DNA of 40,984 bases, taken from the IMG/VR virus record IMGVR_UViG_2541047851_000005. One strand, given 5' to 3'. A program made the position numbers and the translations under genes. The notes under the pieces are model-generated. The model was not told where the DNA came from. It worked only from the letters and a program-made list of their open reading frames with translations, and made no database searches. The number at the start of each line of letters is the position of its first letter. Position 1 is the stretch's first letter. This document shows, piece after piece, positions 1-38,202 of the stretch. The stretch comes from a virus (Duplodnaviria > Heunggongvirae > Uroviricota > Caudoviricetes).

Positions 1-696
1 TCACTTAGGGTATGGCTGAACCTTGAATAGCTTGGTATTTAGTCGCTTCCTTGCTCGCTTGTTCAGGAACCTGATGTAGCGATACTGATTAAATTTGTGC
101 ACCACGGCACGCTCTTTATTAGCCCGTAAATACACGCCTCGTTGTCCACCGCGTTTAATCGCGTTCATCGTTATCTCGTGATACCACTCACCATCCAGCT
201 CGTAGAACGTGCTTTCATGGCTGCCAATAAAATCAAAATTCGACGCCTGATACACAACGCCTGCGCGTCCGCAGCGTTCGTCAGCAAAGGACTGAACCCA
301 CTCCACTGACGGATACAGTAACCTTATGGTTTTCAGTGCATAACTGATGGCCCGAGATTCAGAGTTGCGGGGCATGTTGTCGTGTAGCCACATGCGGTTC
401 AACTCCATATAGCCCCGGTTATCCGTTTCAAGCACGACACGACGACCTGAGTTGGGGTTAAGGGCATATCCCTACTGGAGAACGCCAACCAGATCGCGTC
501 CGCTGAATACTCCCAGGTGGAGGTAAGAGTTATTCACAAAACGGCGGGAATAGTGCTTTGTCTGAATAATTGTGCGGGCCAGCCAGCAGGATATGGTTTC
601 AACGCGCAGCTCCTTTGAACCATAGCCAACAATCTGGCCTTCATACTCAATAACGCACGGTTTCGTCAGAATGCGTGATTTCTTCTCTTTTCCCAC
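1..696 (-). pseudogene. mom: mom (DNA modification protein Mom) interrupted by an in-frame amber codon at 472-474
   Basis: ORFs 472..726 and 1..435 are in the same frame, separated by TAG at 472-474 with 12 sense codons between. Read-through from GTG at 694-696 gives 231 codons, the length I recall for Mu Mom. Overlaps com 3' end as in Mu. Confidence 0.8.
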
Positions 697-835: not shown

Positions 836-945
836 CTCACCTCCTTTGCATCAATTCGCCACTATCTTAAAAAACATCGTGGGTTAAGTGTGGTTATTAG
901 GGCATAATCGATCTGTATTACCGATCGATTTGATTGATTCGATCG
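836..945 (-). promoter_or_regulatory. mom operon promoter region (Pmom) with C-activator site, T-run spacer and three Dam GATC sites
   Basis: Minus-strand reading gives TTATGCCCTAATAA dyad, a T6 run and TAAGAT upstream of com. GATC at 910-913, 923-926 and 941-944 overlap the gin 3' end, as in the Mu mom regulatory region. Confidence 0.55.
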
Positions 946-1511
946 TCGTTTTCTATATGCGTTCGTTTCGCAGGGTGTTTTTTATACAGAGTTGAGAGGG
1001 CCACATCGTAGATCAATGCGACCTGCTTGCGGGGGATTCCTTGTGCTAATAAACGCCCGGCCTGCTCCCACTCTGCTTTGGTTAGTTTAGGTGGTCGCCC
1101 ACTAATACGGCCTTTATTTCTGGCGGCAGCAAGTCCAGCCATCGTTCGCTCGATAATTAGTTCTCGTTCCATTTCAGCCAGAGCACCCATAACGTGGAAG
1201 AAAAAACGCCCCATTGGAGAAGATGTGTCTATGCTGTCGGTCAGACTGCGAAAATTAATCCCTCGCTCCCGTAGTTCCCCGACGAGAGAAATCAGATGTT
1301 TCATGCTTCGCCCGAGGCGATCCAGTTTCCAGACAACCAGCGTGTCACCTTTTTGAAGGCGCTTTAAAGCGCGTTTTAATCCCGGTCGGTCTGTCTTTGT
1401 CCCGCTTAATTTATCTTCAAATATTTGTTCACATCCTGCACAAACAAGAGCGTTTCGTTGCAGGTCTGTATTCTGGTCATTTGTTGATACCCTTATATAG
1501 CCAATCAGCAC
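918..1511 (-). CDS. gin: Gin DNA invertase (serine recombinase)
   Basis: 197-aa ORF MLIGYIRVSTNDQNTDLQ... with serine-recombinase N-terminus and C-terminal HTH; adjacent to gix site; matches recalled Mu Gin. Confidence 0.92.
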   Translation of the reverse strand: MLIGYIRVSTNDQNTDLQRNALVCAGCEQIFEDKLSGTKTDRPGLKRALKRLQKGDTLVVWKLDRLGRSMKHLISLVGELRERGINFRSLTDSIDTSSPMGRFFFHVMGALAEMERELIIERTMAGLAAARNKGRISGRPPKLTKAEWEQAGRLLAQGIPRKQVALIYDVALSTLYKKHPAKRTHIENDDRINQIDR

Positions 1512-1565
1512 TCTGGATCTCCCGTTTAAAAGCGCAAATCATGCCATGCAGGCCGGAAACAGCCA

Positions 1566-1591
1566 TTATCCAAAACCTCGGTTTACGAGAA
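1566..1591. repeat. gix recombination site (left in window)
   Basis: TTATCCAAAACCTCGGTTTACGAGAA, inverted copy of the site at 4244-4269 with 2 mismatches; matches recalled Gin gix sequence. Confidence 0.85.
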
Positions 1592-2416
1592 CTCGGAAAA
1601 AGCGGGGATAACATAGCGTTAATCAGTGGAGATAACATGTCGAGCAATCGTCAATTTGAAAATGGCTCAATTCTTGCGTAGATTCCCAGTAATGACGGTA
1701 CGAAGACTGGGTTTAAAACTGATCGAAATGGTGCCGGAGATGGTTTCAAGGGGTCTAAAACAATTGCCAATGGCGACGAATATTTCAAAGGATGAAGACT
1801 CCGGCAAACCACAACTACTGTCCTTGTTAAGCTGAAATGTGAAGCGCTTTATGATAAGGGTAAAGATATCGTTAATGTCGGTGTTGCAGTTGCTTTAATG
1901 CTTCCCTTTAATAGTAGCGCTAGTGTTCTTCGTGATATACACATCCGAGTCAAATATAAAAGTGATGGTATTTCGGACGTGTACGCTAATAGTCAGTATG
2001 GATTTCGATTTGAGAGTGGAGTTTTCTATGCCATGAAAAAAAAACATGCAGGTGGAAGTGATGATTCCTCGCTGCCCACAGCCTATAACTCAACATAGAT
2101 TGCAGGTTTTAGCTTATGGGGTGTTTCAACTCTTCCGATATTTGAAGAGCTCGGCTGGTATGCAAGATGGGGTTACTTCATCACGGGTAATATAAACGGC
2201 AACGGAGTATTATTAATTAACGGAACACTGCAACCCACAATTCGGGGGTATATTAATGCGACGTATGTAAACGCTGGGCGTATGTATCCGCGTGGCACTC
2301 AAAAAATGTTACGTCTTGGAACTCATGAAAAAACCGGGCATACCAGCTCAGGAATCAGATTCATTGGAGATGTCGTTATTCAGGATAAAGCAATAATTGG
2401 ACCGAGGCAAAAATGA
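1592..2416 (+). pseudogene. Alternative tail-fibre variable cassette (S'v-like) with three in-frame stops
   Basis: Frame-2 reading from gix continues IQNLGLRELGKSGDN...; in-frame TAG 1679-81, TGA 1793-95, TAG 2096-98, final TGA 2414-16. Translation is homologous and equal in length to the minus-strand cassette. Confidence 0.55.
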
Positions 2417-2628
2417 ATCTATGGCCCGTCATATTACGTAGCATCGGTGACCATAACGCAGTATTTAATTGTAATGAAATCAGGGTTTCCGCAAACAAAC
2501 CAGAAAGCTCAGCCGTCGTTGAATTTTGTTATAATATGGTAAAGGTCAGGAGTGAGGAATCGGGGGTATGGTTAATTAAAGAAGGCTTAGGAAGACAGCG
2601 TACTGATTGCGAAGGACGACAAAGGTAA
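2413..2628 (+). CDS. Hypothetical ORF inside G segment (position expected for a tail-fibre assembly gene, no recognisable similarity)
   Basis: 71-aa ORF from track; occupies the interior where Mu carries U/U'. I could not recognise Tfa-like sequence. Confidence 0.25.
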   Translation: MNLWPVILRSIGDHNAVFNCNEIRVSANKPESSAVVEFCYNMVKVRSEESGVWLIKEGLGRQRTDCEGRQR

Positions 2629-3417
2629 CATTGTTAAAATGACAAGCAAAGCCTCATCGATCAATTCAGGGAGAATAACCAGCTTTGAGACTCCAGGCTT
2701 CAGATGGAATTGTCTTCCCAAGGGTTTAGGGAAAAAGTTGCCTAAGGAAGGATCTGTGCTTAGAAAGTCGTATACAGAGACCGCTCCGCACTGCCAGTAA
2801 GGTTCACAAAACAACCAGAATGAGTGAGGGGCCGATAGTGGGACTCAGCTTCTAGACAGGGTTTTCTGGCTATATATGACTACGGGTATCCACCGGACAG
2901 GACAGGACTCTTTGGCGTGCCAAAGCCTTCAGTTGAGCCGGTTGCTCATACCAAATCACATATGGCCTCAAAAGCCTTTCCAATAACTGAATCACAATAT
3001 CGGGTCCTGAAACAAACTGGACGTTCTGGGATCGGTACTGTCAGTCTGGAGCTTCCGGTGTATTAAACTTTCTACCCACAGTTCCGCCCCTAAACATCCA
3101 CTTGTTTATATTCGTCGGAAGAGGTTTGGATGCTATGCCGGGAGTCCCATCGCCGGTTTTGCTCTCTGACTTATGCGAACAGGCATCGTTTTTTATGTCC
3201 AGCTTGATACTTCTTCCCTTCCTCACAATATTTACGGTGTCGCCCTACGCCATCTTTGAACACCCATATCAGCTTTACCCCTCCCCGGAGATCAGCTATA
3301 AAACATGATAATTCTATGATGGCTGCTCCTTCCGTTTTATTTGTTGAAATATCCTCTTCAAAATAATTAATTGCTCCATAATGTACACATGCGCTATGCT
3401 ATATGTTGGGCCATTGA

Positions 3418-3982
3418 TTTATTTTTGCATCGTACCAATGATGGCCACCACATGACCATATCCTTCAGCTGTGATATTTAATTGGTAGCTGGTATGCCTG
3501 GCTTGTTCAAAACGAGCACGAAGCAACATTATTTGAGCAACACATGGTTCAATACGACCCGCTTTAAACCACCTCGAATCAAAACTCTACTGAATGGGGG
3601 TCGGCTTCTGAGTATTAATAGAAACTATTCCGTTGCCATTTGTATTTCCCTTAACAAAATAATGTCACCTTTCCTACCCGCCGGAACCTGCCAATGCCGG
3701 ACGGGTTGACGCACCGCATAGACTAAAAGCTGCAATAATCCTGGAGGTATATGCGCCCGGCAGATAGGACTCATCACTTCCACCTGCCTGTATTTTTTTA
3801 ATAGTAATAGCATCTGCACACTGTAATTGAAACACATACCCATCATGAGCCGAACCATAGGGAATACCACCACCTTTATAATTCACACGGGTTTGAACGT
3901 CACCACAACCAACAGAGTTACTACTTAAGGGAATCATCAAACCAAATGCAACACCAACCTGGGTGTCAGCAGCTCCACGATT
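3418..3982 (-). pseudogene. Distal part of tail-fibre variable cassette (Sv), in frame with S but separated by amber and further stops
   Basis: Same frame as S ORF. After TAG 3983-85 the frame continues NRGAADTQVGVAFG...GGSDESYLPGAYTSRIIAAF...; in-frame TAG 3674-76, TGA 3665-67, TAG 3587-89, final TAA 3418-20. Confidence 0.5.
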
Positions 3983-4765
3983 CTATTGCCCTCCCACGTA
4001 CGGCTTCCTCAGATCAGTTGTACTGGTGTGTCGGCGGGCACACCCTTTGAAATATTCGTCACTAATGGCAACATCTTTAGAACCCACGAAAGCAACAGCG
4101 GCAACTTCACGTGCTGTTTTCAGTCTTGTCGCCGCCCAGGCAGTGTCTCGCATTTCGCCAGGAAGTCCATCGCTTTCTGATGTAAGATCGCCGGAGAAAT
4201 TCTCTGTACTGTGTTGCGCTGCGTTCTCCCCCCTGTTTCCCGTTTCCTGTAAACCGAGGTTTTGGATAAATAGCGGCTTATTGGGAATATCTGCTCCGTT
4301 CCGGTCTTTTGCCAGACGGGCATTGGCATTATCCATCGCAATTTTCACCGCTTTTGCGGTGGCTGCCAGCGTTTCACTGGGGCTGTCAGTGGCACTGGTT
4401 AGCTGAACGAGTCCTTTTTTGTTCAGGCTGGCATCATAGATATCCAGATTTTCACGTGCTGTACGCTGTGCTGATGCCCCGGCAATTTTAATTTCGCTGA
4501 GGTTATTTTTTATCAGCAGCGCGTTATTGCTCATAATGGCTTTAATGGACAGTGCAAGCTGGTTTAATTTTGTTTTATCCGGTTGAATACCGGCTTCTTC
4601 CAGCGTGTTTAATAACTCCGCCTGAACAATATTAAACCAGTCCATGCCGGGCCATGTGATAATATTATTCCCGTCACCTTCTGAAAACCAGCGAACGATA
4701 GCACTACGCTGGGCGGATACGGGCGGCATGACGGTTACGCCGCTGTCGTTATCAATATAAAACAT
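3983..4765 (-). CDS. S: Tail fibre protein S (constant part plus proximal variable part), terminated by an amber codon
   Basis: 260-aa ORF; N-terminal 166 aa constant region reads through gix (FIQNLGLQETG) into G; ends at TAG 3983-85, much shorter than the ~500 aa I recall for Mu S. Confidence 0.75.
   Translation of the reverse strand: MFYIDNDSGVTVMPPVSAQRSAIVRWFSEGDGNNIITWPGMDWFNIVQAELLNTLEEAGIQPDKTKLNQLALSIKAIMSNNALLIKNNLSEIKIAGASAQRTARENLDIYDASLNKKGLVQLTSATDSPSETLAATAKAVKIAMDNANARLAKDRNGADIPNKPLFIQNLGLQETGNRGENAAQHSTENFSGDLTSESDGLPGEMRDTAWAATRLKTAREVAAVAFVGSKDVAISDEYFKGCARRHTSTTDLRKPYVGGQ
4244..4269. repeat. gix recombination site (right in window)
   Basis: TTCCTGTAAACCGAGGTTTTGGATAA inside the S coding sequence; inverted relative to 1566-1591. 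Confidence 0.85.
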
Positions 4766-5307
4766 TAGTTATCTCCGTCATGGTAAACAAATTTATAAAT
4801 CTGATGCGCGGGTTTATATTTCTCCAGTAAACATTCCAGCGCACCCGATTCATAAACACGTAACGGCGTCAGAACATTATCCAGCACCGTTGCGTTGCGA
4901 TAATTTTTAATACCGTAAATATTGACCTGCGTAACCCACTGGCCTTCTGTGGAATCCGTCAGCCTGACGGTAAAACCGTACTGCGCAGCCAGCCATTCAT
5001 AAAAACGCCGACTCAGATTGCCGGTCATACGCATTTTATTCGCGGCAGCCCGCTGGCGTTCGGACAGGGTGCCGTTTTCGCTGGTACAGTCAGGCAACCC
5101 CAGAAATGATTCCCACTCCCCCAGATACCAGCGGGATGTGGACGGGAAACGCTCCCGCAGCATTTGCCGCGCATCATCCGCCGCAGTGGCAATCACGTCA
5201 CTGATGGCCTGCGCCAGCGCAGATAATTTGCTGTCGGGGCTTTTATTCCAGGCAAGCCCTGACGGCAGTAATTGCAGAAAGGCCGTCTGATAGGGTGTTA
5301 CAGCCAT
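4765..5307 (-). CDS. Tail/baseplate protein (Mu gp48-like)
   Basis: 180-aa ORF immediately upstream of S in the Mu baseplate block; position and size. Confidence 0.65.
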   Translation of the reverse strand: MAVTPYQTAFLQLLPSGLAWNKSPDSKLSALAQAISDVIATAADDARQMLRERFPSTSRWYLGEWESFLGLPDCTSENGTLSERQRAAANKMRMTGNLSRRFYEWLAAQYGFTVRLTDSTEGQWVTQVNIYGIKNYRNATVLDNVLTPLRVYESGALECLLEKYKPAHQIYKFVYHDGDN

Positions 5308-6380
5308 TCAATTGTCCCCGGTGTTAACAGTTCCGTATTCTCCGAACGCTGGATCTCTGTCGGGAAACGCACTTCAAAATCATCCAGACCGGTAACACCT
5401 GCCACCGCACGGATAATACGGGAGGGGGCAAGTGCGCCGCCCGGCGTCACCTCATTAAAAAACATGGTATTAATGGCGTGGGTAATAGCCTGTTTCAGTT
5501 CGGCTGTCTTCGGTGATATATAAATCCGTGGATTTACCGGCTTTGCCTTTGGCGCAAATACAGTGACATTTACACCGTCAGGCTGTCCGACAATCAGACC
5601 GGTGATCGGGTCAGTATGACCGGCGATATAATCCGCCACGCGTTCCACGTCTGCCGGTTGTGGAAAAATATTGCTCCGGTTATCCATAACAAACGTCACC
5701 CCGACTGTGCCACCGCCTTTCCATGTCGGAAAACACCAGGCACGGGTAACGCCGCTGACTTCACGTGCCCAGCGGACGTAATCAAACTGATTACCGCCGA
5801 ACGGAGGATACTGGACACGATATTCCAGCCGTGACAGCAGCTCCGCTGCACTCTCAATATCAGCTCCACCGGAAAACCCTTTTACAGTGATGGCATCGGA
5901 AACAACACAGGCAACCGGGGTGATCAACGTTAAAAGGGTATTCTCACCGGTATTTCCTGCCTCACCGGCAGCCAGTGCGGTAACGGTAATTTCCGTCGTT
6001 CCTGCACGGTCAATCACAATGGCATCAGCCAGGCTGTAAACCACACCATCAGCACGCTGCCAGCGTGTACCGGCAGGAATGGTGGTCGCTGCCGATGTGG
6101 TGACAGTCAGCGGGCCGCTGGCGGCTGTCGCCTGTTTGCGGCGCACCCCCCAGAACCGGCAGTGCTCCAGCAACTCATCTTCATCTGCTGTCGACGGGAT
6201 AATCTGCCGTCCAACCCATGAAATATGCTCGTGACAACCGGCAGCAAGGCCCGCCTGAGCATAAGCAATGGCACTCAGCGTTTTTTCACGGGCCTGAGGC
6301 CAGCTACCCGGCAGGCGCTGTTCAATATTCTGTTCTGTACGGGCAATCAGCGATGATAGTGTCGGTGGTGAATAAGCCAT
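5298..6380 (-). CDS. Baseplate J-like protein (Mu gp47-like)
   Basis: 360-aa ORF in baseplate block; size and position consistent with baseplate wedge J family. Confidence 0.75.
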   Translation of the reverse strand: MAYSPPTLSSLIARTEQNIEQRLPGSWPQAREKTLSAIAYAQAGLAAGCHEHISWVGRQIIPSTADEDELLEHCRFWGVRRKQATAASGPLTVTTSAATTIPAGTRWQRADGVVYSLADAIVIDRAGTTEITVTALAAGEAGNTGENTLLTLITPVACVVSDAITVKGFSGGADIESAAELLSRLEYRVQYPPFGGNQFDYVRWAREVSGVTRAWCFPTWKGGGTVGVTFVMDNRSNIFPQPADVERVADYIAGHTDPITGLIVGQPDGVNVTVFAPKAKPVNPRIYISPKTAELKQAITHAINTMFFNEVTPGGALAPSRIIRAVAGVTGLDDFEVRFPTEIQRSENTELLTPGTIEWL

Positions 6381-6818
6381 TTAAACCCCGTTAAATGCTG
6401 CTTTAAACTCATAAGGAATAACGGAACCATCCGGTAATGTCAGTGCAATATAGAGGTATAACCAGCCCTGATGTAACTGTTCCGCTCTGACGTTAATCGC
6501 ACTTACCCGGCCCGCTGTTTTCAGCCATTCCAGCGCCTCTTCGGCATACCCTCTGGCGCGTTCCAGCGTATCCGGTGTGGCTTTTTCACGTGATAACAGC
6601 CACAACCGCGAACCGATGGGGCGGTCGCGGTAACTGTCACCCCACCATCCACGGCGATCATCTGAACCATCCGGCAGCGTGTCAGAATCCAGCGCGCGCC
6701 GGTCGGTAAACAGGGAGATTGTCACATCGGTTGTCAGGCTGTCGTCGGTCAGCATATCAATGCCATCCTGTGCAATATCGCCGCGTCCGTTCGTCCAGAT
6801 AATGGCTAAATCGGTCAT
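6381..6818 (-). CDS. Baseplate protein (Mu gp46-like)
   Basis: 145-aa ORF, tightly packed in baseplate block. Confidence 0.65.
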   Translation of the reverse strand: MTDLAIIWTNGRGDIAQDGIDMLTDDSLTTDVTISLFTDRRALDSDTLPDGSDDRRGWWGDSYRDRPIGSRLWLLSREKATPDTLERARGYAEEALEWLKTAGRVSAINVRAEQLHQGWLYLYIALTLPDGSVIPYEFKAAFNGV

Positions 6819-7408
6819 TGCATTGGCCCCGTGGTTCCGCCACTGTCGCCCGGATGGGTGTGTTTATCCGTCGATTTGCCATTGATGATGGCATCCGGGG
6901 CGCTGATATTGCCTGCAAAGTCACTTTCACCTTTAACACTGAGGCCTTTCAGAATTTCAACATCGCCGGTAAACGTGGCTTTCGGGGTGTCAACGGTCGC
7001 GCCTTCATCGGCGTGAACCTCAACCGTTTTACAGGTAATGATGCAGCGTCCATCCTTTGTCAGCCTGATACGATGCCCTTCGTAGTGATAAACGCCGGCA
7101 TCGCCCGGTTCAAGATTTGTCGGGCGGTAGCGGCGGTCTTCCACCACAACGGCAATCCCCTGATCACGTTGTGCACCCACACAGGCAATCAGCGCCTCTG
7201 CGCCCGGCAGAGGAACGCTGAAATGCCCGTAATTTTGCAGGCGCTCCACTTCATCAGATTCCTCATCATCCAGCAGACCAACCTGCAGGTTCTGAACCTT
7301 TCGCCCGTCGTTAATCACGTTAACAACGGCACGCGCAAGCATCAGGCGCACACGACGCATCAGCGGCATCAGCAGGCGGTTCATGGCGGAATCATTTACT
7401 CTTTCCAC
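6815..7408 (-). CDS. Baseplate assembly/spike protein (Mu gp45-like)
   Basis: 197-aa ORF with C-terminal Gly-rich tip; position after P. Confidence 0.7.
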   Translation of the reverse strand: MERVNDSAMNRLLMPLMRRVRLMLARAVVNVINDGRKVQNLQVGLLDDEESDEVERLQNYGHFSVPLPGAEALIACVGAQRDQGIAVVVEDRRYRPTNLEPGDAGVYHYEGHRIRLTKDGRCIITCKTVEVHADEGATVDTPKATFTGDVEILKGLSVKGESDFAGNISAPDAIINGKSTDKHTHPGDSGGTTGPMQ

Positions 7409-8529
7409 GGCGGCGTTTTCTCCGGGTGTCTGCGATAATAATCTTCAACCAGCGCATCAATACCGCCGTTATTGTCACTTTTGTTTTTACGGTCACTTTC
7501 AACCGGCACCAGAAAGCCTTCGCGTGGTGCAAGGCTGACGCGGGTTTTCATCCCGTCCTGGTCATTCAGTATCAGGGTGACTTTGCTGACCAGTAATTCC
7601 GTGGTTTTGATGGCATATTTCGAGGCATCAATAGTGACCAGCAGGTTCGGCATCCAGAGTTGCCCGTCCTTGCGAGTCCATCCGTCAATTTCTGCCTCAA
7701 AGGTGATGGATTTTGCCAGTCTGCGGCGTTGCTCACGCAGGGCGCGGGCCTGTGCATCCTTCGCCGTAATCTTGCTGTCAGCAATGATGATCATCGGTCT
7801 GTAACGGGTCACATCACTGTCAGTGGCGGTCCCTTTCCGGGATACGATACTTTTCGCATCAATATCATCACCCTCAGCACCATTTGCGCGGGCATACCCC
7901 TTGACGGTGTATTCGCTGAACCGGTCGCGGAAGTCTTCCTCAAAATCCAGTGTCAGCAGATTTTCTCCGAGAACCAGCTCATCAGTGGCTGTGCTGGCAG
8001 CCCGGCTGAATACCAGCTCTCCGGCGGCATTGCTGGTCATCAGTACACCGCGTGCGCGGGAGGCACGCACCAGCGCCTCATAAACGGTTTCTGAATGGTC
8101 CAGCGTGAAGCCGGGAAAAGCTGCCGAACTTTCCTTATCGGAAAGCTCCCAGCGAACGGTAACGCCATAAGGGGTGCACAGGTCACGCGCAATCTGCTCC
8201 AGTGTGCGGTTTTTCCACTGTCCGCCACTGTAAACGGCAGCACAGTCAATCAGGTCAGCCGTTTTGTCACGTCCGGCGATAGTGATTTTCATACTGTCAG
8301 CGGTCATCTGGCGTCGCCGTGAATCGATATAACCGGTGCAGACAATCTGCCCCCCGATTTCGAGCGTGAACTTCTTCCCCGGTGCCAGCCCGGATAAATC
8401 CGTGCCCGGTGGCACGTTCACCCCCAGCTCAAAATATCCGGCTACGGATTCAATCGAGCGGGTGACAGAGACTGACGTCCAGCCGGTAAAAAGCCTGCCA
8501 TCCGTTCGCAGCGTGACGGTATTACTCAT
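7396..8529 (-). CDS. P: Tail/baseplate hub protein P
   Basis: 377-aa ORF; Mu P-like size and position between N and the baseplate genes. Confidence 0.75.
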
Positions 8530-10009
8530 TAATCACCTCAATACTGATACCACCGGGAACAAACAACGGGTTGCTGATACCGTTCCTGCGGGCCAGCCGT
8601 TGCCAGTTCCGGCTGTTTCCTGTGTAACGGTACAGGGCCACCATTGCAGGCATCGTCTCCGGCAGGCGGTGCGTTTCACTGCCCGCCAGTTGCAGCCCGC
8701 GTTTTTCCAGGTCGGCAACAACCAGCAGACGCAGTTGCGTAAGCTGAACGCTGTCTGTCGAAAAGCCCTGCTCAGATGCCGTCAGAATGACGGTATCCAG
8801 TGCAGCCCCCAGCATGGCGGCTGTTTTTCCGATATCGGACACACTTTCAAATACCGGGGGCGTGGCTGTACCACTGTCTGAAAAGGATACCTGTGAAAAG
8901 CCGCCGTCCGGGGTTATGGCAGTTAACTGTAACTGTCCCTGTGTGACGGTAGCAGATGTGCTGCTGGCCCCGCTGGCTGTGCCGGTTGTGGTGGACGGGG
9001 CATCCAGTACAGGTGCACGGGCGGCATTATCCATCCGGCGACTGAAATCCAGTGCCGCAGTCAGTGCCTGGCTGGCAGCTTCTGCCCGGTATGTCTGCGC
9101 CGCTGCCAGCATGACGTAGTTCAGTGTGGCAATATTTTTTTCTGCAACCGGACTGTTGTACGAGGTTGTGATTGTCCCCTGTCTGCCTGCGGTGACGGCA
9201 TGGCGACGTTCGAATCGTTGCGCCAGACGGTTCCAGGTGGAAAATGCTGTCCGGGTATCGCATAACGATGAAACGCCGGACAGCGCCCCCATCAGCGAGG
9301 AGGCCAGCATGGCAGGCTGGTTAATCAGGCTGGTCACAGAGCCTTTCATCGCAGAAAGCGATCCCATCAGACCGCTGACAGTCTGCGTAACCCCCAGATT
9401 GTCCACCGCATCACTGATATCATCGATGACACCGGTTACAGCTTCCATCACGGCGGTTGCCGCCGCAGTGCCATCTTTTACGGTCTGCCAGACAGAGGAC
9501 AGCGTATCTCCCAGAGAACCGGTTACAGCAACGGCCTGTGCCGGTACGGCTGCACTGGTGTCTGTCTCTGCGTCCGGGGCAGTATCCTGCAACGACGGAT
9601 AAACGGTAACGGTGAACGCGTAATAATTCAGTTCATCCGCTTTAGTGCGGCATTCCCATGAATCCACCATGACGTCCACAGTGCCGAAATCAGGATGTAC
9701 CAGCTCACCGCTACCCGGAGCATCAAGAGCATCCATCAGCGCACCCGCTTCATCTCTGGCTGTTTCTGCGTTGCTGTTCAGAATGCAGGCGCTGAATGTA
9801 CGGGAGCGAAGCTTTTTCCCCAGGTCATTGACGCCGCCGGTATCACGTAACGGGTACTCGCGTTTAACCAGGCGACGTCCGCCAGCCTGTTTTTGCTCCT
9901 CGATGACGAGAAACGGCACGTTACGGAACGTGCCTTTGCCGGTTGTTTTCCTGCCTCCACCAGTTTTATCCCGGACAGCATTAACGGCATTTAAAGCATC
10001 TTCAAACAT
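8522..10009 (-). CDS. N: DNA circularization protein N
   Basis: 495-aa ORF immediately downstream of the tape measure gene, as in Mu. Confidence 0.75.
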
Positions 10010-10013
10010 GGTT

Positions 10014-12086
10014 TTACCAGCCCGTAATGTAGTTATCGCCCGCGTAAATATTCAGCCCCATACCATCCTCGGTGACGCGGGAACTGGTCAGACGTAACCC
10101 CTCGCCAAGTTCGACGCGCAGCGAGGCTTCCGCATTGACTTTTTGTTCCTGCGGTTCCTTATCCGTGGCCGTCCATTTCTGATACAGGTCGGTTACAAAA
10201 CCGCCCAGATACTCCCCGGCGACACTGCCCAGCGTGGCACCGGCAACCGTACCCAGCGGTCCGGCAAGGCTGCCAACGGCACCGCCGAGCCATGCACCGG
10301 CTGTACTGCCAATTGCGCCTGCTTTTTCATGGGTTGACGCCTGCTCATCCATCAGGACGGGGGCAAGCTGGAGTGCCCCCATTACCGGGCCCCCCAGACG
10401 TGACAACGCACGACCGGCACCTTTCCCCATCCAGCCCAGCGCCCCGGCACCTTTTGTCACAACCCGACCGATCGCACTGCCTGCAAGTTTGTTTCCGATA
10501 CCGGAAAACCACCCGCCAACGGCACGCCCGGCATCAGCCAGCTTTCCGACCGTTCCCGTAACCAGTTGCCCGGCAGCACTGCCTGCAAGCCTGCTCAGAA
10601 GACCGGATTTACCGGGTAAAGGTAATGGTGCAGGCCGTGCCGTTACCGGTACGCCGGGTGGGGGTAATGCCAGTACAGGGCGTGGTGCAGGTAATGCCAG
10701 CGGCTGTGGTCCGGACAGCAATAACGGCTGGCGGGGTAACAGCGGGGCCATTCTTCCGCCGCTCCGTCCGCGACGACCGCCGCCACTCCCGTAGCCACCA
10801 AATCCACGGGGCCAGTTGATGACAAACACACGCTGAATGCCGATACCCTGCAACAGCGTCTCAGACGTCATGGCATCCGGGACCGGCAGACCTGCCTGCC
10901 CACGTTTGCGGTTCCGCATCCAGCGCCACATACGACGCCCGGTTTTAAACGGATAACTGGCAACCTGCCATGAGGGTTTTGCCACGGCCCAGCCTGCTCT
11001 CAGGGCTTTATTGGCAAGCCAGACAGACACCAGAACAGCAGCCAGTTTTTTCAGGCTGACAATATTCTGGTCAACCCATGCCAGCGCATCTTTACCCGGT
11101 TTCAGCCAGCGCCATAACTCCTGCGCCGCGATTTTTACCGTTCTGAACGTGGTCAGAAATTTCTGACCAATGTTTTCTGCCAGTGCGTCAAGTTCCCCGG
11201 ATTTATCCGCCATGTCGTGCCAGTTAAGCACCCGGCGCATCTCGTTCTTGATTTCTTCAAAGGGGCCGCTGTTTGCCACCTTTATGCGAAATTCAAGCAG
11301 GTTGGCTTCCATCTGGGCGAACATCCCGTCCCAGGAGTTCATCGCACTGGCCTGTGCACCTTTTGACTGTTCTGACAGCGTTCTGAATACCGTCAGAATG
11401 GATTTCAGGCCCAGCTTGCCTTTTTCACCTTGTTTGCGGATATCCTTAACGTCTTTACCCAGTGCATCCGCCAGCGTCTGGTAAACGTTAATACCGTAAC
11501 CGGTCAGCAGGTTGGCATCCGCCGCTGTGATTTGCTGGCGGGCAAACATCTGTTTCAGTTGCAGTGAGGCACCCTGTGCAGTGGGTAAATCCCAGCCGTG
11601 CATGGCCCCCTGATCCTGCAACATGGTGATGAACTGTTTCGTCTGTTCATCCGTCATGCCGAAGCCTTTTGACGAACGGATCTCATCCAGAACACCACTC
11701 AGCCCCCACGTGGTGTCCTTCGCGTTCTGCTTTGCCCAGGCCATCATGGCCTGCGCTCTGACCTTATCGCCGTGATACAGCGAGTTCATGGCGATAATCT
11801 GTTGCTCACGCTGGGCGGCTGCACCAATAAACAGTTTATTGGCGGTGTAACCCACGCCAGCGATACCCAGCGCCCCGGCTGACAGCATTCGGAATGTACG
11901 GGTTGACAGAGAACCCATTCTGTCAATGGCACCAGAAACGCGCACAACCTCCATACGCAGGGCACGAAGGGAACTTTGCCCGCTACGGGACAGGGCGTTT
12001 ATCTGGTTCGAATACTGGCGGGAACGCCGGGAAAGATTGCCATTAAGATCAATAATGACAGACGCCTTTAAGCGTTTCCCGGTCAT
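10014..12086 (-). CDS. Tail tape measure protein
   Basis: 690-aa ORF with helical N-terminal region and Pro-rich/Gly-rich low-complexity C-terminal region; between tail chaperone and N. Confidence 0.85.
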
Positions 12087-16161: not shown

Positions 16162-17100
16162 TTACAGGTAGTCAGCGACAACCAGTTGCAGCTTGCCCTT
16201 CATCTCGTTGGAGACGGTGGTATTGCCATCCGCGAACAGTTCTCGTTCCAGTAACTGCACCGCCTGTTTTTCCAGAGAGGTGGGCACCACAATGTGCGTG
16301 GGCTTAATCCCCAGCTTGCGCCCGCCATCAGCCGTAAATTCACGCATGGCCGACCAGCCGAGCCAGAGATTATCCAGCGTCAGCGGTGCCTGCATCATGT
16401 AAGCCATCTGCCAGAAGCCGTAGCCCACATTGCGGCGGGCTGATGCACCAAACACAAACTCGTTATCCGTAAAGGCCCGGCCTTCATCGACTTTGGTCTG
16501 GGCAACCAGTTCTGCCTTGCGGCGATCCTGATAAATCAGCGGTTTCACAGCGCGGGAACAGTCAAGCAGATACCAGGCAGGCCCGGTGTAATCGCTTTTT
16601 TCGGCAGTCTGTGCCACAAATTTATTACTGACGTTTTTCACATCTCCGGTGCCATCCACTTTCGGATAAACAGGATGTTCGGTATCGAAGAAGTTCTGTC
16701 CGTCATAACAGGCCACTTTCACACCGTCACGCAGGGCTGCGAACACCAGTTCGTCCGGCTGTGCTGCTGCGGCACGGCCCATTTCCTGGAACAGCGGAGA
16801 ATAAATACCGAGATTGTCGTCTTCGAAGTCATCACGGTTAATGGCTACCGTGCCTTCAAAGGTTTTGTTCACAATGGAATAGCCATAGGCTTTCATCTTC
16901 TCGATGACACGCGAACCAATCCACTCACGGAATTGCGGAAACTGGCCCAGCCAGCCGTACGTGTTGGATTTCGACGTGGATGGCACGGTCATTGCAATTT
17001 TCTGGTACTGCGACGGGGCCATTGCCATACCAGCCTGAAAATCGCCACGGTAGCCGGTCATCAGCGAGGTGATCATCGCAGGAGTAATCGGAGTTGGCAT
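16162..17100 (-). CDS. T: Major capsid protein T
   Basis: 312-aa ORF; size and position as Mu T. Confidence 0.88.
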   Translation of the reverse strand: MPTPITPAMITSLMTGYRGDFQAGMAMAPSQYQKIAMTVPSTSKSNTYGWLGQFPQFREWIGSRVIEKMKAYGYSIVNKTFEGTVAINRDDFEDDNLGIYSPLFQEMGRAAAAQPDELVFAALRDGVKVACYDGQNFFDTEHPVYPKVDGTGDVKNVSNKFVAQTAEKSDYTGPAWYLLDCSRAVKPLIYQDRRKAELVAQTKVDEGRAFTDNEFVFGASARRNVGYGFWQMAYMMQAPLTLDNLWLGWSAMREFTADGGRKLGIKPTHIVVPTSLEKQAVQLLERELFADGNTTVSNEMKGKLQLVVADYL

Positions 17101-32627: not shown

Positions 32628-34634
32628 TTAAATGGCTTTTTTACGTCTGTTCTGTTCCAGAATATCCAGCGAATGATTCAGATATTCATCACGCTCAGTT
32701 TCGTATTCATCATCACGCTCCTGATTCTTCACCCGTTCCGTATTACCGGAAGGCCGGAAAATACCAACAATTCGTGATTCTGGTGCTGCTGGTTCGGCTA
32801 TCTGCGGCAGCAGTTCAGCAACTTCCAGCGCGTCCATTTGTTTCTGCGCCTTAATGGCTGCTTTAGTTGCAGATTTCAGTTGTTTCTGGCGGCGGCGATA
32901 TTCACGGCCTGCCGCAGCATCATTAAACGCAACAGGTGCCAGACATTCCGCTTCACAAATAAACCGACCGTCCAGGGTGTAGCAATAAACCGTGCTGTGT
33001 AACTGCTGCGGATCAAATCTGACCACAACTTTTTTCACTCCGGCATTCATTAACGCCATGTTGTAATAAACGTTTTTCGCGCCTTTAAGGGAGCCGCCAA
33101 CTTTAAGCGCGAACTCGCCTTTACGTGAAACGTTCACCGCCTCGGCAGGCAGCAACAGCATCCGTTTTTGCTCTTCGGTAGGCTTACGCACAATCGTTCT
33201 GGCGTATTCACGCTCGAAAACATCATCAAACGAGAGTTTGCCCCCGCACATTTCTGTTTCACGGCCTGTTCTGGCATTAAACATCGCCACACCTTCGGCA
33301 AGGGTTTTCAGAAACAGCTCTGCATCAACAGCGCGGTCGCCATAGTTATCAGGTTTTGCCTGCGGATTAGGCCCCGTATATGCGCCAGCCAGTGCCGGAT
33401 GCTTATCAACGTATTCCTCAAGCCCACCAACACCGAAAGCACGTTCAACAGGTTTTGCCTGGCCCCAGCCTTTACCGGCAACAACGCTTGTCCAGTGCAT
33501 TTTCGCCCCCATCAGTAAAAACAGTCCTTTTGGATCGTCCTCTTTTACCTTAAAGCGGTAGCGATTGGGCGCGCCTCCCGTCAGCCATTTATTCGCAGCA
33601 CCACGGGTGTTATCAATGGTGATGTGAAAATCCTCCGGGATACCGTAGCGAGTCACAACATCCATGAACGAGAGGCGAATTGAATCAATGTTCTCGCTCA
33701 CATCGCAGCGCCAGCCCAGAATTTTTCGGGTTTTCACATCCTGCCAGAACCATGTTTTCGGGCGGATCACATCACCGTTAAACCAGCGTACAAAGACGTT
33801 ATGCAGATAACCGTCGCCGTTGATCCACTGCATGGCGTCCAGGTGTTCCACAGTTCGTTGTTGTGCCGGTATCAGATGCATCAGTGCATGTTCACCTTCA
33901 CGGCAGGCAACAACCATTGCCTCGTCCAGTTGCTGAATCCGGCGAAAGGCCGTGGCACGGGAGGGAATACTCCAGCCATGCTCGCGGGCTGCCAGTTCCA
34001 GACGCTCATAACATTTGCGGAAGGCGGGTTTTTCCGGTCGCAGATAATCTGCAATCAGAAACTGCCAGGCATCCTCGTCAAATTCACTTTTGTGAACATT
34101 GCGACGGGATGCACCACGTCCATCAACAAGTGCAGCCGCCCAGTCAGGCTTCGCAAACTTCTGTACCTGGTAATACTTGTCCCGCAAAGTGGATGCGCTG
34201 ACCTGGTAATGCCCTGCAACGGTCGCAAAAGCCGTTTTTGTTGAAATCCCCTGGTTCAGCATTTCGTCTGCGGCCTGAACCGCAGGCAACCATTTTTCAG
34301 CAAGTCTGCGCTGGGAATCGCTGGCGTTATCCCATTTGCTCCACAGTGCCTCACGATCATAATCATGGGCTTCCAGCGTGGGGCGGGCGATTTCAAAACG
34401 GCCCTGGCTTGTTTCGATCTCTCCTTGTCTAAGCAACAACGCAGCTTGCGTTTCCTTTGGTAAAGATGAGATATGAAACTCATAGGCTACTCCTCTTACC
34501 CCGTGTATCTGTCGAAACACCCACTGTTCTAACCTTGCTTTACGAGAGATCGCGCTAGAGGATTTTGGAAGACCTATCAGCCCTTCTAATTTCTTTGCAG
34601 AAAACCAATCATTACATTGTGGTTGCATTTTCAA
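32628..34634 (-). CDS. A: DDE transposase MuA (D108-type N-terminal domain)
   Basis: 668-aa ORF; most of the protein matches recalled MuA, but the first ~65 aa ([24 protein letters not shown]...) differ from Mu. Confidence 0.95.
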
Positions 34635-34849
34635 TACCTCGAAGGCCAGATGTCTCGTGGCTCAACTCCCAATGCATCGGCAATGATTCTTTCCCCCCGA
34701 GGGTAAGGTTTATCCAAGGCATTTTTTACCGTAGAGATAGAGAGACCGTTCTCACGACCAAGAGCTGCTAGGCTTTTTCCTCTTTTGCGCAGATCAGCAA
34801 CAATGTCGTATCTACTTTTGTCTTCACATTTACTTTTCTTTATCGCCAT
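34631..34849 (-). CDS. ner: Ner-like DNA-binding regulator
   Basis: ORF 34631..34858 (TTG); probable ATG start at 34847-49 (MAIKKSK...), ~72 aa; C-terminus ...IWPSRY as in Ner; overlaps the A start. Confidence 0.8.
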
Positions 34850-34901: not shown

Positions 34902-34926
34902 AAGGTATGCAGCAATGCTAGTGTGA

Positions 34927-35676
34927 AAAGAGGGACTGACCGGCGAAGGCGCTGCACGGCAGAATGCCATCAATGCTTCGGTTGCACAGGGCCTTGAGGC
35001 GTCCCTGCGCTGGCTGACGGAGCTGACAACGTCACTTGCCACCACAAACTACGCGATTACCCGGGTAAACGACAGGGTCAGTTCACTGGTCAGTGATACT
35101 GCCAGGCTGGCGCATTATTCCGCAGATACACGGGAGCAGTTACTCATCCTGGCCGATCAGGTTCACCATAAACTGAATCATCTTGAAGAAAAACTCCACC
35201 GTGTTGACCAGGTTCAGCGGGCGCAGTTACATCTTGAGCAGATATTCTCATGGTGGAGCGCCGGGCGATATGCGTCATTTTCCCCTGCCGGACGTTGTTA
35301 TGTGGCGCTTGAAGAGCTTCGCTGGGGCGCGTTTGGTGATGTGATACGTCAGGGCGAAACAGGCCAGGTTAACCAGCTACTGGATATTCTCAGACATAAA
35401 GCATTAACGCAGATGGCACAGGAGAGTGGCGGTAGTGCAACCGTGCGTCTGAACACTCTGGACTGGCTTGGTGGTCAGGGCCGGGAGCAGGCAGATAACG
35501 AGTGGCATGACGCGATTAACTGGCTGGGAGACTGGTGCAGTGAAGAGCAGCATCCGGTGATCTGGTCAACCACGCAGGCTGCAGAACACTTACCGGTTCG
35601 CATGCCTCGCCTCTGCTCTGCAGAACGCCTCTCTGAAAGTATGGTCGATGAAATATTTCAGAAGGGGGCTGCATGA
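34927..35676 (+). pseudogene. 5'-truncated ORF (about 250 codons, no start codon) translationally coupled to patatin gene; unknown function
   Basis: Frame open from TGA at 34924-26 to stop at 35674-76 with no ATG/GTG/TTG before GTG 35302; stop overlaps the patatin ATG (ATGA). Coiled-coil-like and Trp-rich C-terminus. Confidence 0.55.
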
Positions 35677-36743
35677 GTACAGAAATGAAAACGGGGCTGG
35701 TGCTGTCCGGTGGCGGGGCGGTGGGCGCTTATCAGGCGGGAGTGGTTAAGGCACTGGCAGAGTGTGGTACACAGATCAGCATGGTTTCAGGGGCCAGCAT
35801 TGGCGCATTCAATGGTGCCATTATCGCGGCCTCTCCCGATCTGTCAGAAGCTGCCGTACGCCTGGAGGCGCTCTGGGATCATCTGGGGAATAATCAGGTG
35901 CTGTCGGTAAACCGATTGGTTTACTTTTCATTGCTGAAAAAATTGTTCCAGGCAATGAACCTCTGCCAGATCCCCGGACGTGCAGGAGCACTGCTTACGA
36001 CGCTTCTTCGCCATATATCGATACTCAACGGGTTTGACAATCTGATGGCTCAGCCGTTGTTGTCAGATGAGCCCCTGACAGCGCTGTTGGATCATTATCT
36101 TGATACTGATGCTCTGGCAGACGGGCTACCGCTGTATGTGTCGCTGTACCCCACAGAAGGGGGCATGCAGGATATTATTGACTGCATTCGTGCTGAACTG
36201 GGTGCCGGAACCACGAAAAACGCCGTTTTTCAGCATATCCAGAGCCTGCCCCGCGGACAGCAGAAAGAGGCTCTGCTTGCGTCAGCCGCGCTGCCCCTGC
36301 TGTTCCGTCCCCGTGAGGTTCAGGGGACAATGTTCGGTGATGGTGGTATGGGAGGATGGCGAAATATGCAGGGAAATACCCCTGTGACGCCTCTGGTCGA
36401 TGCCGGATGCAATATGGTGATTGTGACGCATCTGAGTGACGGTTCTTTATGGGATCGCCAGGCTTTTCCGGACACCACAATCCTTGAGATCCGTCCCCGG
36501 AAAAGGCTGAAATATGCAGGTGATGGTGACAACAGCGGCGGTCTGCTCAGTTTCACGTTGGCACATACCGACGCCTGGCGTCAGCAGGGCTATGAAGACA
36601 CGATGCTGACGATGGAGCATATCCGGAAACCGCTGGCAGCACGTCAGGTACTGTCCCGGTCAGAAACGGTGTTGCAGAAAAGTCTGGAGATAACGGAAGA
36701 GGCAGATTTGGCACTGAGAAACGCGATGGCCCGGATTAAATAA
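35673..36743 (+). CDS. Patatin-like phospholipase
   Basis: 356-aa ORF with oxyanion-hole SGGGAVGAY, nucleophile motif GASIG (GxSxG) and catalytic Asp motif DGG (MFGDGGMGG); AGGGGG Shine-Dalgarno upstream. Confidence 0.9.
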   Translation: MSTEMKTGLVLSGGGAVGAYQAGVVKALAECGTQISMVSGASIGAFNGAIIAASPDLSEAAVRLEALWDHLGNNQVLSVNRLVYFSLLKKLFQAMNLCQIPGRAGALLTTLLRHISILNGFDNLMAQPLLSDEPLTALLDHYLDTDALADGLPLYVSLYPTEGGMQDIIDCIRAELGAGTTKNAVFQHIQSLPRGQQKEALLASAALPLLFRPREVQGTMFGDGGMGGWRNMQGNTPVTPLVDAGCNMVIVTHLSDGSLWDRQAFPDTTILEIRPRKRLKYAGDGDNSGGLLSFTLAHTDAWRQQGYEDTMLTMEHIRKPLAARQVLSRSETVLQKSLEITEEADLALRNAMARIK

Positions 36744-36757
36744 AGACGCCCCAAAGA

Positions 36758-36786
36758 AACGCCACCGCCTGTGGTGGTGTTTTTCC
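36758..36786 (+). terminator. Possible weak intrinsic terminator after patatin gene
   Basis: CCACC-gcctgt-GGTGG stem followed by TGTTTTT. Confidence 0.35.
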
Positions 36787-37073
36787 TGGCTGGTGTTATT
36801 GAAAATATTTTCAGATATATATTACCTGAGAGAAAGTTTTACCCCTCACCTGTCAATTCACTCACTGGAAATTTAATTATGCAATTACCTGTAAAGTTAT
36901 TAATGAGCCTTATATCTCTGGTCAGCGTTATTGCACGTGCCGGGAAATATAAAAATTACATCCGGGATGAAATAAAATACTGGCGATATACATCATACAA
37001 GGGGGGGGAATTTCCGGAAGGTTTCACTGATGAGAAATTTTCCAGCGCCATTTACAACGGAAGAATATTTACA

Positions 37074-37556
37074 ATGAAACGTTTACATACCCTGATGTTA
37101 TTTCTGGCGGTTCTGTTTACTGGCTTTAACGTGGAAGCAGCGAGCGTGAAACAAGCGCTCAGCTGCGACCCAAACGCCCGGGCTGAACAACCTGGAGCGT
37201 GTCCAACAACGTACGAGTTGTACGAAGGTGACGCTGCCTACAAAGCTGCGCTTGACAAAGCATTAAAACCGGTCGGACTGAGCGGCATGTTCGGTAAAGG
37301 CGGGTATATGGATGGCCCTGGCGGAAACGTAACGCCAGTAACCATTAACGGTACAGTCTGGCTCCAGGGCGACGGTTGCAAAGCCAATACCTGCGGCTGG
37401 GACTTTATCGTAACACTCTATAACCCAAAAACCCATGAAGTCGTTGGCTACCGCTACTTTGGTTTAGATGACCCGGCCTACCTGGTTTGGTTCGGCGAAA
37501 TTGGCGTGCATGAATTCGCGTATCTGGTGAAAAACTACGTAGCTGCGGTTAACTAA
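37074..37556 (+). CDS. Ivy-family (lysozyme inhibitor)-like periplasmic protein
   Basis: Start moved to internal ATG at 37074 (MKRLHTLMLFLAVLFTGFNVEAAS signal peptide). Mature part has a CKANTC loop resembling the CKPHDC loop of Ivy. Upstream 300 bp is AT-rich and non-coding-like. Confidence 0.5.
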   Translation: MKRLHTLMLFLAVLFTGFNVEAASVKQALSCDPNARAEQPGACPTTYELYEGDAAYKAALDKALKPVGLSGMFGKGGYMDGPGGNVTPVTINGTVWLQGDGCKANTCGWDFIVTLYNPKTHEVVGYRYFGLDDPAYLVWFGEIGVHEFAYLVKNYVAAVN

Positions 37557-37571
37557 TTTAAGGAGTCTGTC

Positions 37572-37982
37572 ATGAAAACTTTTATCAAAACTTTACTCGT
37601 TGCTGTAACTATTCTGTTCTCTGTCTTCGCTACGGCGAAACAAGTAAAACTGCCAAACAACATCAAATACGTTAATACTACAGAGGCGTTTTCCTGTACT
37701 GAGATTGACGGTATGAATTGCCAGACGAAGAATCCGTTTAACTATAAAGATAACAGCTATGTTTTCGTGCTTGAACGTGGTGGTGCCTGGTGTTACGACT
37801 ACACTGTCTCGGTACTTAACCTGAAAACCGGGAAAGCACAGATGCTCGAATACAAAGACAACCAGCTGTGCTCAGGTAGCAACAAACCGTTCTTCGAAAT
37901 CAAAAATGGCGTACCGACGGTAGGAGTCATCGACACATCCGGAAAACCTGTCGTTGTGGCTCTGGACAAACTTAAAACCTGA
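37572..37982 (+). CDS. Small secreted Cys-containing protein, unknown function
   Basis: 136-aa ORF with signal peptide MKTFIKTLLVAVTILFSVFATA; GGAG Shine-Dalgarno; 16 nt after the Ivy-like gene. Confidence 0.6.
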   Translation: MKTFIKTLLVAVTILFSVFATAKQVKLPNNIKYVNTTEAFSCTEIDGMNCQTKNPFNYKDNSYVFVLERGGAWCYDYTVSVLNLKTGKAQMLEYKDNQLCSGSNKPFFEIKNGVPTVGVIDTSGKPVVVALDKLKT

Positions 37983-38124
37983 GGAGTAAACCATGCGTTT
38001 CTCTGCACATTATTAATATCAAAGGTAAATACAGCCCCAGCCATTGTTGCCGGAAAGCCGCTTAATGCGTGGCTCGCCAGTGAAAGGCTTCTCAGACAAT
38101 AAACCTCATTCATTTCACCCGTCA

Positions 38125-38158: not shown

Positions 38159-38202
38159 ATTTATTACACCAGTAAATCTTAACCACCGATAAGGAGCAAA
38201 GT

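Follow-up and report, generated by a model that had tools for sequence, protein, structure and literature searches.

Why should the tail-fibre region of a Mu-like prophage carry several in-frame stop codons and no frameshift? The window analysed here, a stretch of 40,984 nucleotides, comes from scaffold KE701229.1 of GCA_000459615.1, a draft assembly of E. coli KOEGE 30 (63a). Its host flank is ordinary E. coli, with 100% identity to several complete genomes, and its phage backbone is Mu-like, with about 97% DNA identity to Mu over the first 25 kb compared. The initial annotation had described two variable tail-fibre cassettes interrupted by seven stops and had proposed four causes, namely a suppressor host, localised mutagenesis, consensus errors in an inverting region, or selection to silence the fibres. 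When the sequence was re-read, all seven stops were located at the claimed coordinates and the frames were unbroken. Judging from the sequence, we give a probability of about 0.97 to the reading that the stops are an assembly artefact, a blend of both orientations of the invertible tail-fibre segment, and that the genes only look broken.

The locus has the parts of a Gin-type switch: an invertase gene is adjacent, inverted repeats bound the segment and one of them lies inside the tail-fibre gene (Table 1). As in Mu, the Gin protein is nearly the same, the constant part Sc lies outside the segment, and two alternative Sv and U cassettes belong inside it. The inverted repeats are also at the same point of S, the right one falling within S at the point that corresponds to the G-segment boundary marked in the Mu record. 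As far as the G boundary, the Sc DNA shares about 99% identity with Mu, and it shares 99.3% with the Mu-like prophage of E. coli JNEC-KY180. The differences from Mu are in the segment itself, which is 3,060 bp in Mu and 2,704 bp here, is a different allele and, as deposited, blends both orientations so that no cassette is readable. Relatives of the Mu G segment and Gin are the C segment with Cin in P1 and the P segment with Pin in e14.

Table 1. Features of the tail-fibre switch in the window. Positions of the ghosts, the blended remains of the cassette genes, were carried over from the annotated JNEC-KY180 prophage (window x = JNEC-KY180 locus y - 1435).
Feature	Position	Strand	Remarks
gin-type serine DNA invertase, intact	918..1511	-	197-aa ORF; 97.9% identity to Mu Gin over 193 aa, no stops
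gin domains	918..1511	-	source record lists Pfam Resolvase and HTH_7 for this gene
Left inverted repeat, gix-type crossover site, gin side	1566..1599		exact 21-nt core TTATCCAAAACCTCGGTTTAC at 1566-1586
G segment as deposited	1566..4269		random mixture, base by base, of a 2,704-bp segment and its reverse complement
Right inverted repeat, S side	4236..4269		exact core (inverted) at 4249-4269; identity back to 99% from 4266
Sc, constant N-terminal part of tail fibre S, intact, outside the segment	4270..4765	-	matches the beginning of Mu S
Ghost of Sv (long variable cassette), orientation A	1566..2452	+	JNEC-KY180 annotation
Mirror ghost of Sv, orientation B	4269-3383	-	would fuse to Sc, giving a 460-aa S
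Ghost of tail-fibre assembly gene U, orientation A	2456..2983	+	mirror ghost 3379-2852 (-)
Ghost of tail-fibre assembly gene U', orientation A	3012..3545	-	mirror ghost 2290-2823 (+)
Ghost of Sv' (short variable cassette), orientation A	3548..4269	-	would fuse to Sc, giving a 405-aa S'; mirror ghost 1566-2287 (+)
Plus-strand stops	TAG 1679, TGA 1793, TAG 2096	+	sequence read
Minus-strand stops	TAG 3983-3985, TAG 3674-3676, TGA 3665-3667, TAG 3587-3589	-	sequence read

The telling statistic is the self-reverse-complementarity of the segment, not the number of stops. Compared in exact register with its own reverse complement, segment 1566-4269 has 62.6% identity, and a 50:50 blend of the two orientations is expected to give 62.5%. 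For 200 control segments the same measure was 25.0 ± 1.3%, with a maximum of 28%, and a shift of the register by 1-3 bases brought the segment down to 23-29%. The pattern is thus far beyond chance, and the earlier judgement that this is not random decay was right. Genuine G segments, including the parent of the deposited one, showed an in-register self-complementarity of 27-28%. The 62.6% in the window was uniform along all 2.7 kb and was not concentrated in conserved domains.

Near-identity searches of phages and of complete E. coli genomes, with positions 1500-4800 as query, matched the flanks and gave no match inside G. A novel or decayed segment, which these flank-only matches had suggested at first, was dropped when a distant blastn search found the parent at 64%, in a single gapless alignment of 2,704 bp to Escherichia virus P88_4B11 (Xuanwuvirus; LR595891.1, 12876-15579). 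This segment has the same length and the same register. It equals 63.4% of the window bases and its reverse complement 62.6%, and one or the other accounts for 99.48% of bases, leaving 14 unexplained, mostly at mirror-image positions. The segment of the JNEC-KY180 prophage (NZ_AP045177.1, 2018751-2021454), which is also 2,704 bp and adjoins the same Sc, gin, com and mom genes, accounts for 99.56% together with its reverse complement. The residual 12-14 exceptions are probably genuine SNPs. Unrelated 'parents', used as controls, explained 43.5 ± 1.3% of bases, and the parent shifted by 1-3 bases in register explained 43-49%. The G segment of E. coli Z0117EC0036 was rejected as a parent, since it explained a poorer 95.3% and had divergent Sv' ends.

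In both P88_4B11 and JNEC-KY180 the segment stands cleanly in a single orientation and its S, U and U' are intact, whereas in the window the two orientations are superimposed. Their Sv' has no N-terminus, as expected for the non-expressed orientation. Through this 99.5% parent, the two opposite cassettes with their own chaperones (S, U, U' and Sv') are recognised in the window, where they are unreadable as deposited. In 144 complete E. coli genomes, 80% or more of the real segment is present, and among the matches listed it is annotated with tail-fibre and tail-fibre assembly genes.

Up to position 1565 the window is 96-99% identical to the clean relative; the identity is about 62% over 1566-4265 and 99-100% from 4266. 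The left inverted repeat is the exact point of the fall from 99% to about 62%. Since identity drops and recovers exactly at the inverted repeats, these are the edges of the blend. Between them, the choice of orientation behaves like a fair, independent coin. Orientation A was taken at 997 and orientation B at 977 of the 1,974 informative sites, with a runs test z of 0.45 and an autocorrelation of about 0 at lags 1-100. There was no base preference among the six base-pair classes and no codon-position bias, and the choices at mirror positions were independent of each other (255/247/246/238). A column-wise base match of 99.5-99.6%, no indels and sharp boundaries at 1566 and 4266 are the marks of an artefact at a two-state locus that we found here.

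The stops have the same origin. All seven, as well as the terminal stops of both read-through products, draw bases from both orientations, with a sense codon in each parent at the same place. For example, TAG at 1679 is made from TGG and GAA, and TGA at 3665 from TCA and TGG. Among the four causes proposed earlier, consensus errors in an inverting region therefore stood, while a suppressor host, localised mutagenesis and fibre silencing did not, the stops being hybrid codons where the parents are sense. In simulated blends we counted 7.4 ± 2.3 stops per frame; the two frames of the initial annotation lie on the low side, with 3 and 4 (P(≤3) = 0.04, P(≤4) = 0.11), a point against the blend. These two frames were picked as the most open ones, which bears on their low counts.

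The initial annotation had also reported two products of equal length that align with each other. They do have 285 codons each and are 38% identical without a gap, but their description as two variable cassettes was wrong in detail. Each strand holds the same 50:50 blend of Sv and Sv', and this is why the two products are equally long and share motifs. They terminate at mirror-image stops (2414-2416 and 3419-3421), and past about 2290 and 3545 the frames consist of blended U/U' sequence, not S. The Sv frame in the real segment is open for 294 codons.

Damage is present in the S-type cassettes as had been claimed, but it is not limited to them, since the frames of the chaperones U/U', midway along the segment, hold 3-7 stops each, with no gaps in the main alignments. 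We detected ghosts of all four cassette genes on both strands. Residues 7-174 of Mu U align to 2474-2977 (+) with five stops and residues 13-174 to 3343-2858 (-) with seven, while Mu U' aligns to 3506-3018 (-) and 2296-2820 (+) with six and seven stops; all four alignments have zero gaps. Mu Sv' aligns to 4336-3551 (-) and 1763-2284 (+). Mu U and U' thus each match both strands, gapless and in different overlapping frames, and only a superposition explains how the same DNA can match U and U' in overlapping frames. As for the claim that the rest of the phage is uninterrupted, nearly all Mu homologues are indeed stop-free, but mom has one in-frame TAG, at Trp85 (472-474). The remaining exception is one stop in a short, 20-residue partial match to gp15.

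We propose that the Mu-like prophage of the strain has an ordinary and intact G segment of 2,704 bp, of the kind that occurs in P88_4B11 and in some E. coli Mu-like prophages, and that Gin inverts this segment, so that G(+) and G(-) molecules were together in the sequenced culture. The two versions, having the same length and the same flanks, may have been treated by the assembly as alternatives for one locus and superimposed column by column. Where the columns disagree, at about 73% of positions, either base would have been written, independently and with a probability of one half. Such a column-wise blend has no insertions or deletions, which would account for the lack of frameshifts. It is expected to be about 62.5% identical to either orientation as well as to its reverse complement, and stops would appear because many codons are hybrid and some hybrids are stops. 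The blend requires both orientations as input and so would imply a mixed culture; we infer that a G(+)/G(-) mixture supplied the two versions. That Gin was probably inverting the segment is the sole piece of biology worth keeping.

The KOEGE 30 (63a) record was presumably made with ALLPATHS-LG, and we take the software step to be one in which site-wise two-fold ambiguities from an ALLPATHS-LG-type graph bubble were flattened at random. ALLPATHS-LG encodes loci with at least two alternative sequences between fixed flanks, among them sites at which the culture is mixed, and later turns the graph into plain FASTA (Ribeiro et al. 2012, PMC3483556). An invertible segment resembles such ambiguities in being two equal-length alternatives with common flanks. 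It differs in that the alternatives there are up to about 100 bases, and a per-base random flattening of a 2.7-kb alternative is not described (PMC3483556). In the literature we found no description of such a blend artefact, only general support for ambiguities encoded by an assembler.

A related case is E. coli HVH 86 (KI538694.1), which belongs to the related series of HVH, KOEGE and UMEA names and has the same 2.7-kb segment, of which both orientations were evidently seen by the assembly. There, the orientations are written in tandem and not blended, and the genes are intact: one copy lies at 6261-8972 and its reverse complement at 9123-11834, after 10 Ns, at the scaffold end. Protein searches for more blended cases in related assemblies gave only full-length or ordinary partial fibres among the matches listed. 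By its name and scaffold accession, UMEA 3200-1 would belong to the same project, and its G segment is clean, which counts against the artefact being universal.

Instead of by random resolution of ambiguities, an artefact could also have come about when a pile-up of force-aligned reads from both orientations was polished by majority vote. A mixture close to 50:50 could be blended by any consensus taken column by column, and a consensus error was among the proposals of the initial annotation, yet we regard this route as unlikely. Neighbouring columns share most of their reads, so a vote would give runs of one orientation, and neither the runs test nor the autocorrelation showed them. Likewise, A(x) and B(x') are supported by the same reads, so the choices at mirror positions should be coupled, but they were independent. 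Force-aligning unrelated sequences normally makes indels, and there were none over 2.7 kb. Moreover, short reads from the interior of the segment are identical for either orientation and would not conflict at all. A coverage-weighted majority vote thus predicts both orientation runs and mirror-anticorrelated choices, neither of which was observed, and a literally random tie-break must be assumed.

The stops might instead be physically present, as a nonsense inactivation through localised hypermutation, fibre-silencing selection or a diversity-generating mechanism. The deposited sequence does hold stops without an accompanying frameshift, and mom likewise has an amber codon, but the bases themselves make this very improbable. 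Where the segment differs from its intact parent, it carries the mirror-position base of the other strand, so that 99.5% of bases are one or the other; to our knowledge, the mirror position is read by no mutational process. Measured against either orientation, about 37% of positions are changed, and there is no bias for base, strand or codon position; this is unlike a deaminase, an adenine-specific DGR or ordinary decay. The change begins and ends, to the base, at the inverted repeats. DGR or another base-specific hypermutation was rejected on this lack of bias and because the altered positions extend over all 2.7 kb, chaperone genes included. Among the Mu gene matches in the window, nothing was suggestive of a reverse transcriptase or a template repeat.

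It is just as improbable that the DNA of KOEGE 30 truly carries the blend, made by some process on a G(+)/G(-) heteroduplex. We know of no repair or recombination that acts on single bases independently across a 73%-mismatched bubble, and replication would just separate the two pure orientations.

Functional genes whose stops are read through, thanks to amber and opal suppressor tRNAs of the host or to altered decoding, are less probable still. Five of the seven stops are TAG and the frames are preserved, as such a host would allow, but TGA and TAA stops are present too, and the other Mu genes end at normal stops. The read-through products are only about 27-42% identical to Mu S, Sv', U and U', whereas the underlying DNA blends segments that are 99.5% identical to known ones, and on one and the same strand U and U' lie in frames that overlap out of phase. 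The host flank is, as noted, ordinary E. coli. Within the window, we found neither a conserved full-length product nor a suppressor tRNA, the search of the window giving no tRNA gene. Finally, a natural self-complementarity, with Sv/U and Sv'/U' as inverted paralogues, has in its favour that Mu U and U' are homologous and that the variable parts of S share motifs, but it can be dismissed, since genuine segments, the parent included, lack the high and uniform value seen here.

There is no new biology in these stops, and they are not a real feature; the deposited G segment is a sequence that is not expected to exist in a cell. Blended entries of this kind are unfit for tail-fibre and host-range analyses, pseudogene counts and dN/dS. 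The artefact leaves a signature, an in-register self-reverse-complement identity of about 62.5% between inverted repeats with no indels, for which other drafts can be screened. A match elsewhere would flag a corrupted sequence and mark out a segment undergoing inversion in the culture that was sequenced. For KOEGE 30 (63a), the public record is wrong at the G segment, where the gene calls and at least one named protein entry, of 260 aa, derive from the blend. An exact 56-mer from the blend had no match in IMG/VR. An alteration of the sequence in the window alone was ruled out, since the public NCBI record encodes the same blend-derived 260-aa product, 'tail fiber protein [Escherichia coli KOEGE 30 (63a)]'.

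All seven stops that the initial annotation had listed in the two tail-fibre cassettes are present in the sequence as given. Its two equal-length read-through products were also recovered: each has 285 codons, they align at 38% identity with no gap, and they finish at mirror-image stops (2414-2416 and 3419-3421). The list of stops was incomplete, as U and U', which occupy the centre of the segment, are interrupted too. In tblastn with the Mu proteins, their frames had 3-7 stops per alignment and the main alignments were ungapped.

The U and U' matches overlap. On the plus strand, tblastn placed Mu U' at 2296-2820 and Mu U at 2474-2977, an overlap of ~350 nt in different frames, and a mirror-image U'/U pair was found on the minus strand (3506-3018 and 3343-2858). 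This is impossible for any real gene arrangement and is expected from a segment superimposed on its own reverse complement. When 1566-4269 was compared with its reverse complement position by position, the identity was 62.6%, and 23-29% when the register was shifted by 1-3 bases; 200 other window segments gave 25.0 ± 1.3%. A 50:50 per-base blend with the reverse complement predicts 0.5 + 0.5 x 0.25 = 62.5%. The self-complementarity of genuine segments (Mu, P88_4B11, Shae_phiSM and others) is only 27-28%. Natural inverted paralogy as the cause of self-complementarity was refuted by the controls.

In distant blastn, the invertible tail-fibre segment of Escherichia virus P88_4B11 (LR595891.1, 12876-15579) aligned over 2,704 bp in one stretch without gaps (64%), and Citrobacter phage Shae_phiSM gave a similar match. 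The window bases equal the P88_4B11 segment at 63.4% of positions, its reverse complement at 62.6%, and one or the other at 99.48%. The 14 unexplained bases are mostly at mirror-image positions, as expected of a few genuine SNPs, each read on both strands. The segment of the E. coli JNEC-KY180 Mu-like prophage, which differs from that of P88_4B11 by 0.41%, explains 99.56% of the window bases. Unrelated "parents" explain 43.5 ± 1.3% (maximum 47%), and the true parent shifted by 1-3 bases 43-49%. Against the clean JNEC-KY180 prophage, the window is 96-99% identical as far as 1565, ~62% over 1566-4265 and 99-100% from 4266. Since the drop falls exactly over 1566-4265, the blending stays between the inverted repeats.

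The real segment is widespread and intact: matches in 144 complete E. coli genomes cover at least 80% of it, and among the matches listed it carries tail-fibre and tail-fibre assembly gene annotations. In JNEC-KY180 it lies within the Mu-like prophage and adjoins gin, com and mom; the genes there are S (460 aa), U (175 aa) and U' (177 aa), together with the Sv' cassette. These four genes are almost certainly present in the KOEGE 30 prophage too. The gin-side repeat of P88_4B11 (4195-4200 of our locus L003) and JNEC-KY180 (right inverted repeat of L005) reads ...ATTTAAAACC..., which puts a TAA into the S frame immediately outside the crossover point, while the window repeats read ...ATCCAAAACC... 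on both sides (1571 and 4264). This is either a small real difference or repeat-edge blending.

Every one of the seven stops, as well as both "terminal" stops, is a hybrid codon, with sense codons in both parents at every site. The frames are preserved because both orientations have identical length and were blended without gaps; no indels were found within the blended segment. The read-through products are equal in length and have motifs in common because each strand bears the same Sv/Sv' blend. At the crossover site the two cassettes share a starting frame. When blends of the real segment were simulated, the cassette frame (282 codons) had 7.4 ± 2.3 stops, so the 3 and 4 seen here are low but still within the simulated range.

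Features of the window, with the parental codons at each stop (orientation B, reverse complement of A)
Feature	Position	Strand	Window codon	Orientation A	Orientation B	Remark
mom	726-4	-				
com	835-650	-				
gin	1511-918	-				intact (Mu protein tblastn)
Invertible G segment	1566-4269					between gin and constant part of S
Stop	1679		TAG	TGG	GAA	
Stop	1793		TGA	AGA	TTT	
Stop	2096		TAG	AAG	TTT	
Stop	3587		TAG	TAT	GGG	
Stop	3665		TGA	TCA	TGG	
Stop	3674		TAG	TCT	GAG	
Stop	3983		TAG	TGG	AAT	
Blend-derived gene call, 260 aa	3983-4765	-				source record
Blend-derived ORFs, 87, 57 and 71 aa	inside 1566-4269					source record
S constant part	4765-4270	-				
Remaining Mu genes	beyond S					out to transposase A and ner homologue near 34.8 kb

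Of the 1,974 informative sites, 997 have the base of orientation A and 977 that of B. The choice showed no departure from randomness in a runs test (z = 0.45), an autocorrelation of ~0 at lags 1 to 100 and no preference in any of six base-pair classes; codon positions were equally used, and choices at mirror positions were independent (255/247/246/238). A fair, uncorrelated and mirror-independent choice fits random resolution of two-fold ambiguities. A coverage-weighted vote does not fit, since it would yield runs and mirror coupling, unlike the observed choices. Gin inversion would have left a culture holding both orientations, which in the assembly graph would form equal-length alternative paths between the same flanks, and ~1,980 two-fold ambiguities resolved at random would then produce the deposited blend. 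The E. coli HVH, KOEGE and UMEA assemblies are presumably from a Broad Institute project and made with ALLPATHS-LG, whose code would be able to replace an ambiguity code by a compatible base picked at random. ALLPATHS-LG retains "local ambiguities", including sample-mixed sites, and then turns the graph into plain FASTA (PMC3483556).

In the related assembly UMEA 3200-1 the G segment is clean. HVH 86 (KI538694.1) has the same 2.7-kb segment twice (6261-8972 and 9123-11834), in a P2/P88-like prophage. A 10-N gap precedes the second copy, which matches the reverse complement of the first at 99.8% identity, includes 95 bp of repeated flank and stops at the scaffold end. It looks like both orientations written in succession, a different artefact of the same cause. 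The blending problem thus depends on the locus and the sample.

Physical nonsense mutation or hypermutation is contradicted by the two-parent fit of the bases and the absence of any mutational bias. The low identity of the translated-through products, the out-of-frame overlapping homologies and the ordinary stops in the rest of the phage all contradict read-through in a suppressor host; a tRNA gene was not found within the window. Among the four explanations first proposed, consensus errors in an inverting region stood, and a suppressor host, localised mutagenesis and silencing selection were not supported. Judged from the bases themselves, the in-segment stops are best regarded as not a real feature. 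Only one biological conclusion survives: the sequenced culture probably held the G segment in both orientations, and hence Gin was probably active.

NCBI assembly GCA_000459615.1 (scaffold KE701229.1) encodes the truncated 260-aa S derived from the blend, which NCBI and nr list as tail fiber protein [Escherichia coli KOEGE 30 (63a)]. The window thus belongs to a publicly deposited draft assembly. The blend-derived gene calls are spurious database entries. A change limited to this window alone is excluded, because the public record also encodes the blend-derived product.

The rest of the phage had been described as uninterrupted, which fails for mom. This gene has one in-frame TAG outside the G segment (472-474, minus strand, codon 85), a codon that is TGG (Trp) in Mu and in every close relative examined. 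It is intact (241 aa) in SE11, TUM9757, Z0117EC0036 and JNEC-KY180, and is split into 74-aa and 130-aa pieces in the source record. As it lies outside the blend, this amber is a genuine private mutation, or else a base error of separate origin.

The Mu-like prophage is in reverse orientation and shares ~97% DNA identity with Mu and D108 across the first 25 kb. Compared with Mu it is a natural mosaic: most genes are 95-100% identical and a few are divergent, the major head protein T (~16165-17088) being just 68% and Ner (34634-34831) just 50% identical, with mosaicism also in the repressor region past ner. Mu c repressor and gp19 had no tblastn match in the window. Because the window begins just past the mom stop, it includes neither the Mu right end nor the second junction; past mom, the source record encodes a Dynamin_N-domain protein and a TonB-dependent receptor. 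The prophage gives way to E. coli chromosome at ~34,926, and from there several complete genomes match the sequence at 100% identity. This host flank at the prophage left end (~34926-40984) has genes for a patatin-like phospholipase, a DUF932 protein, an RdcB-family regulator and YeeS, and so resembles a genomic island in content.
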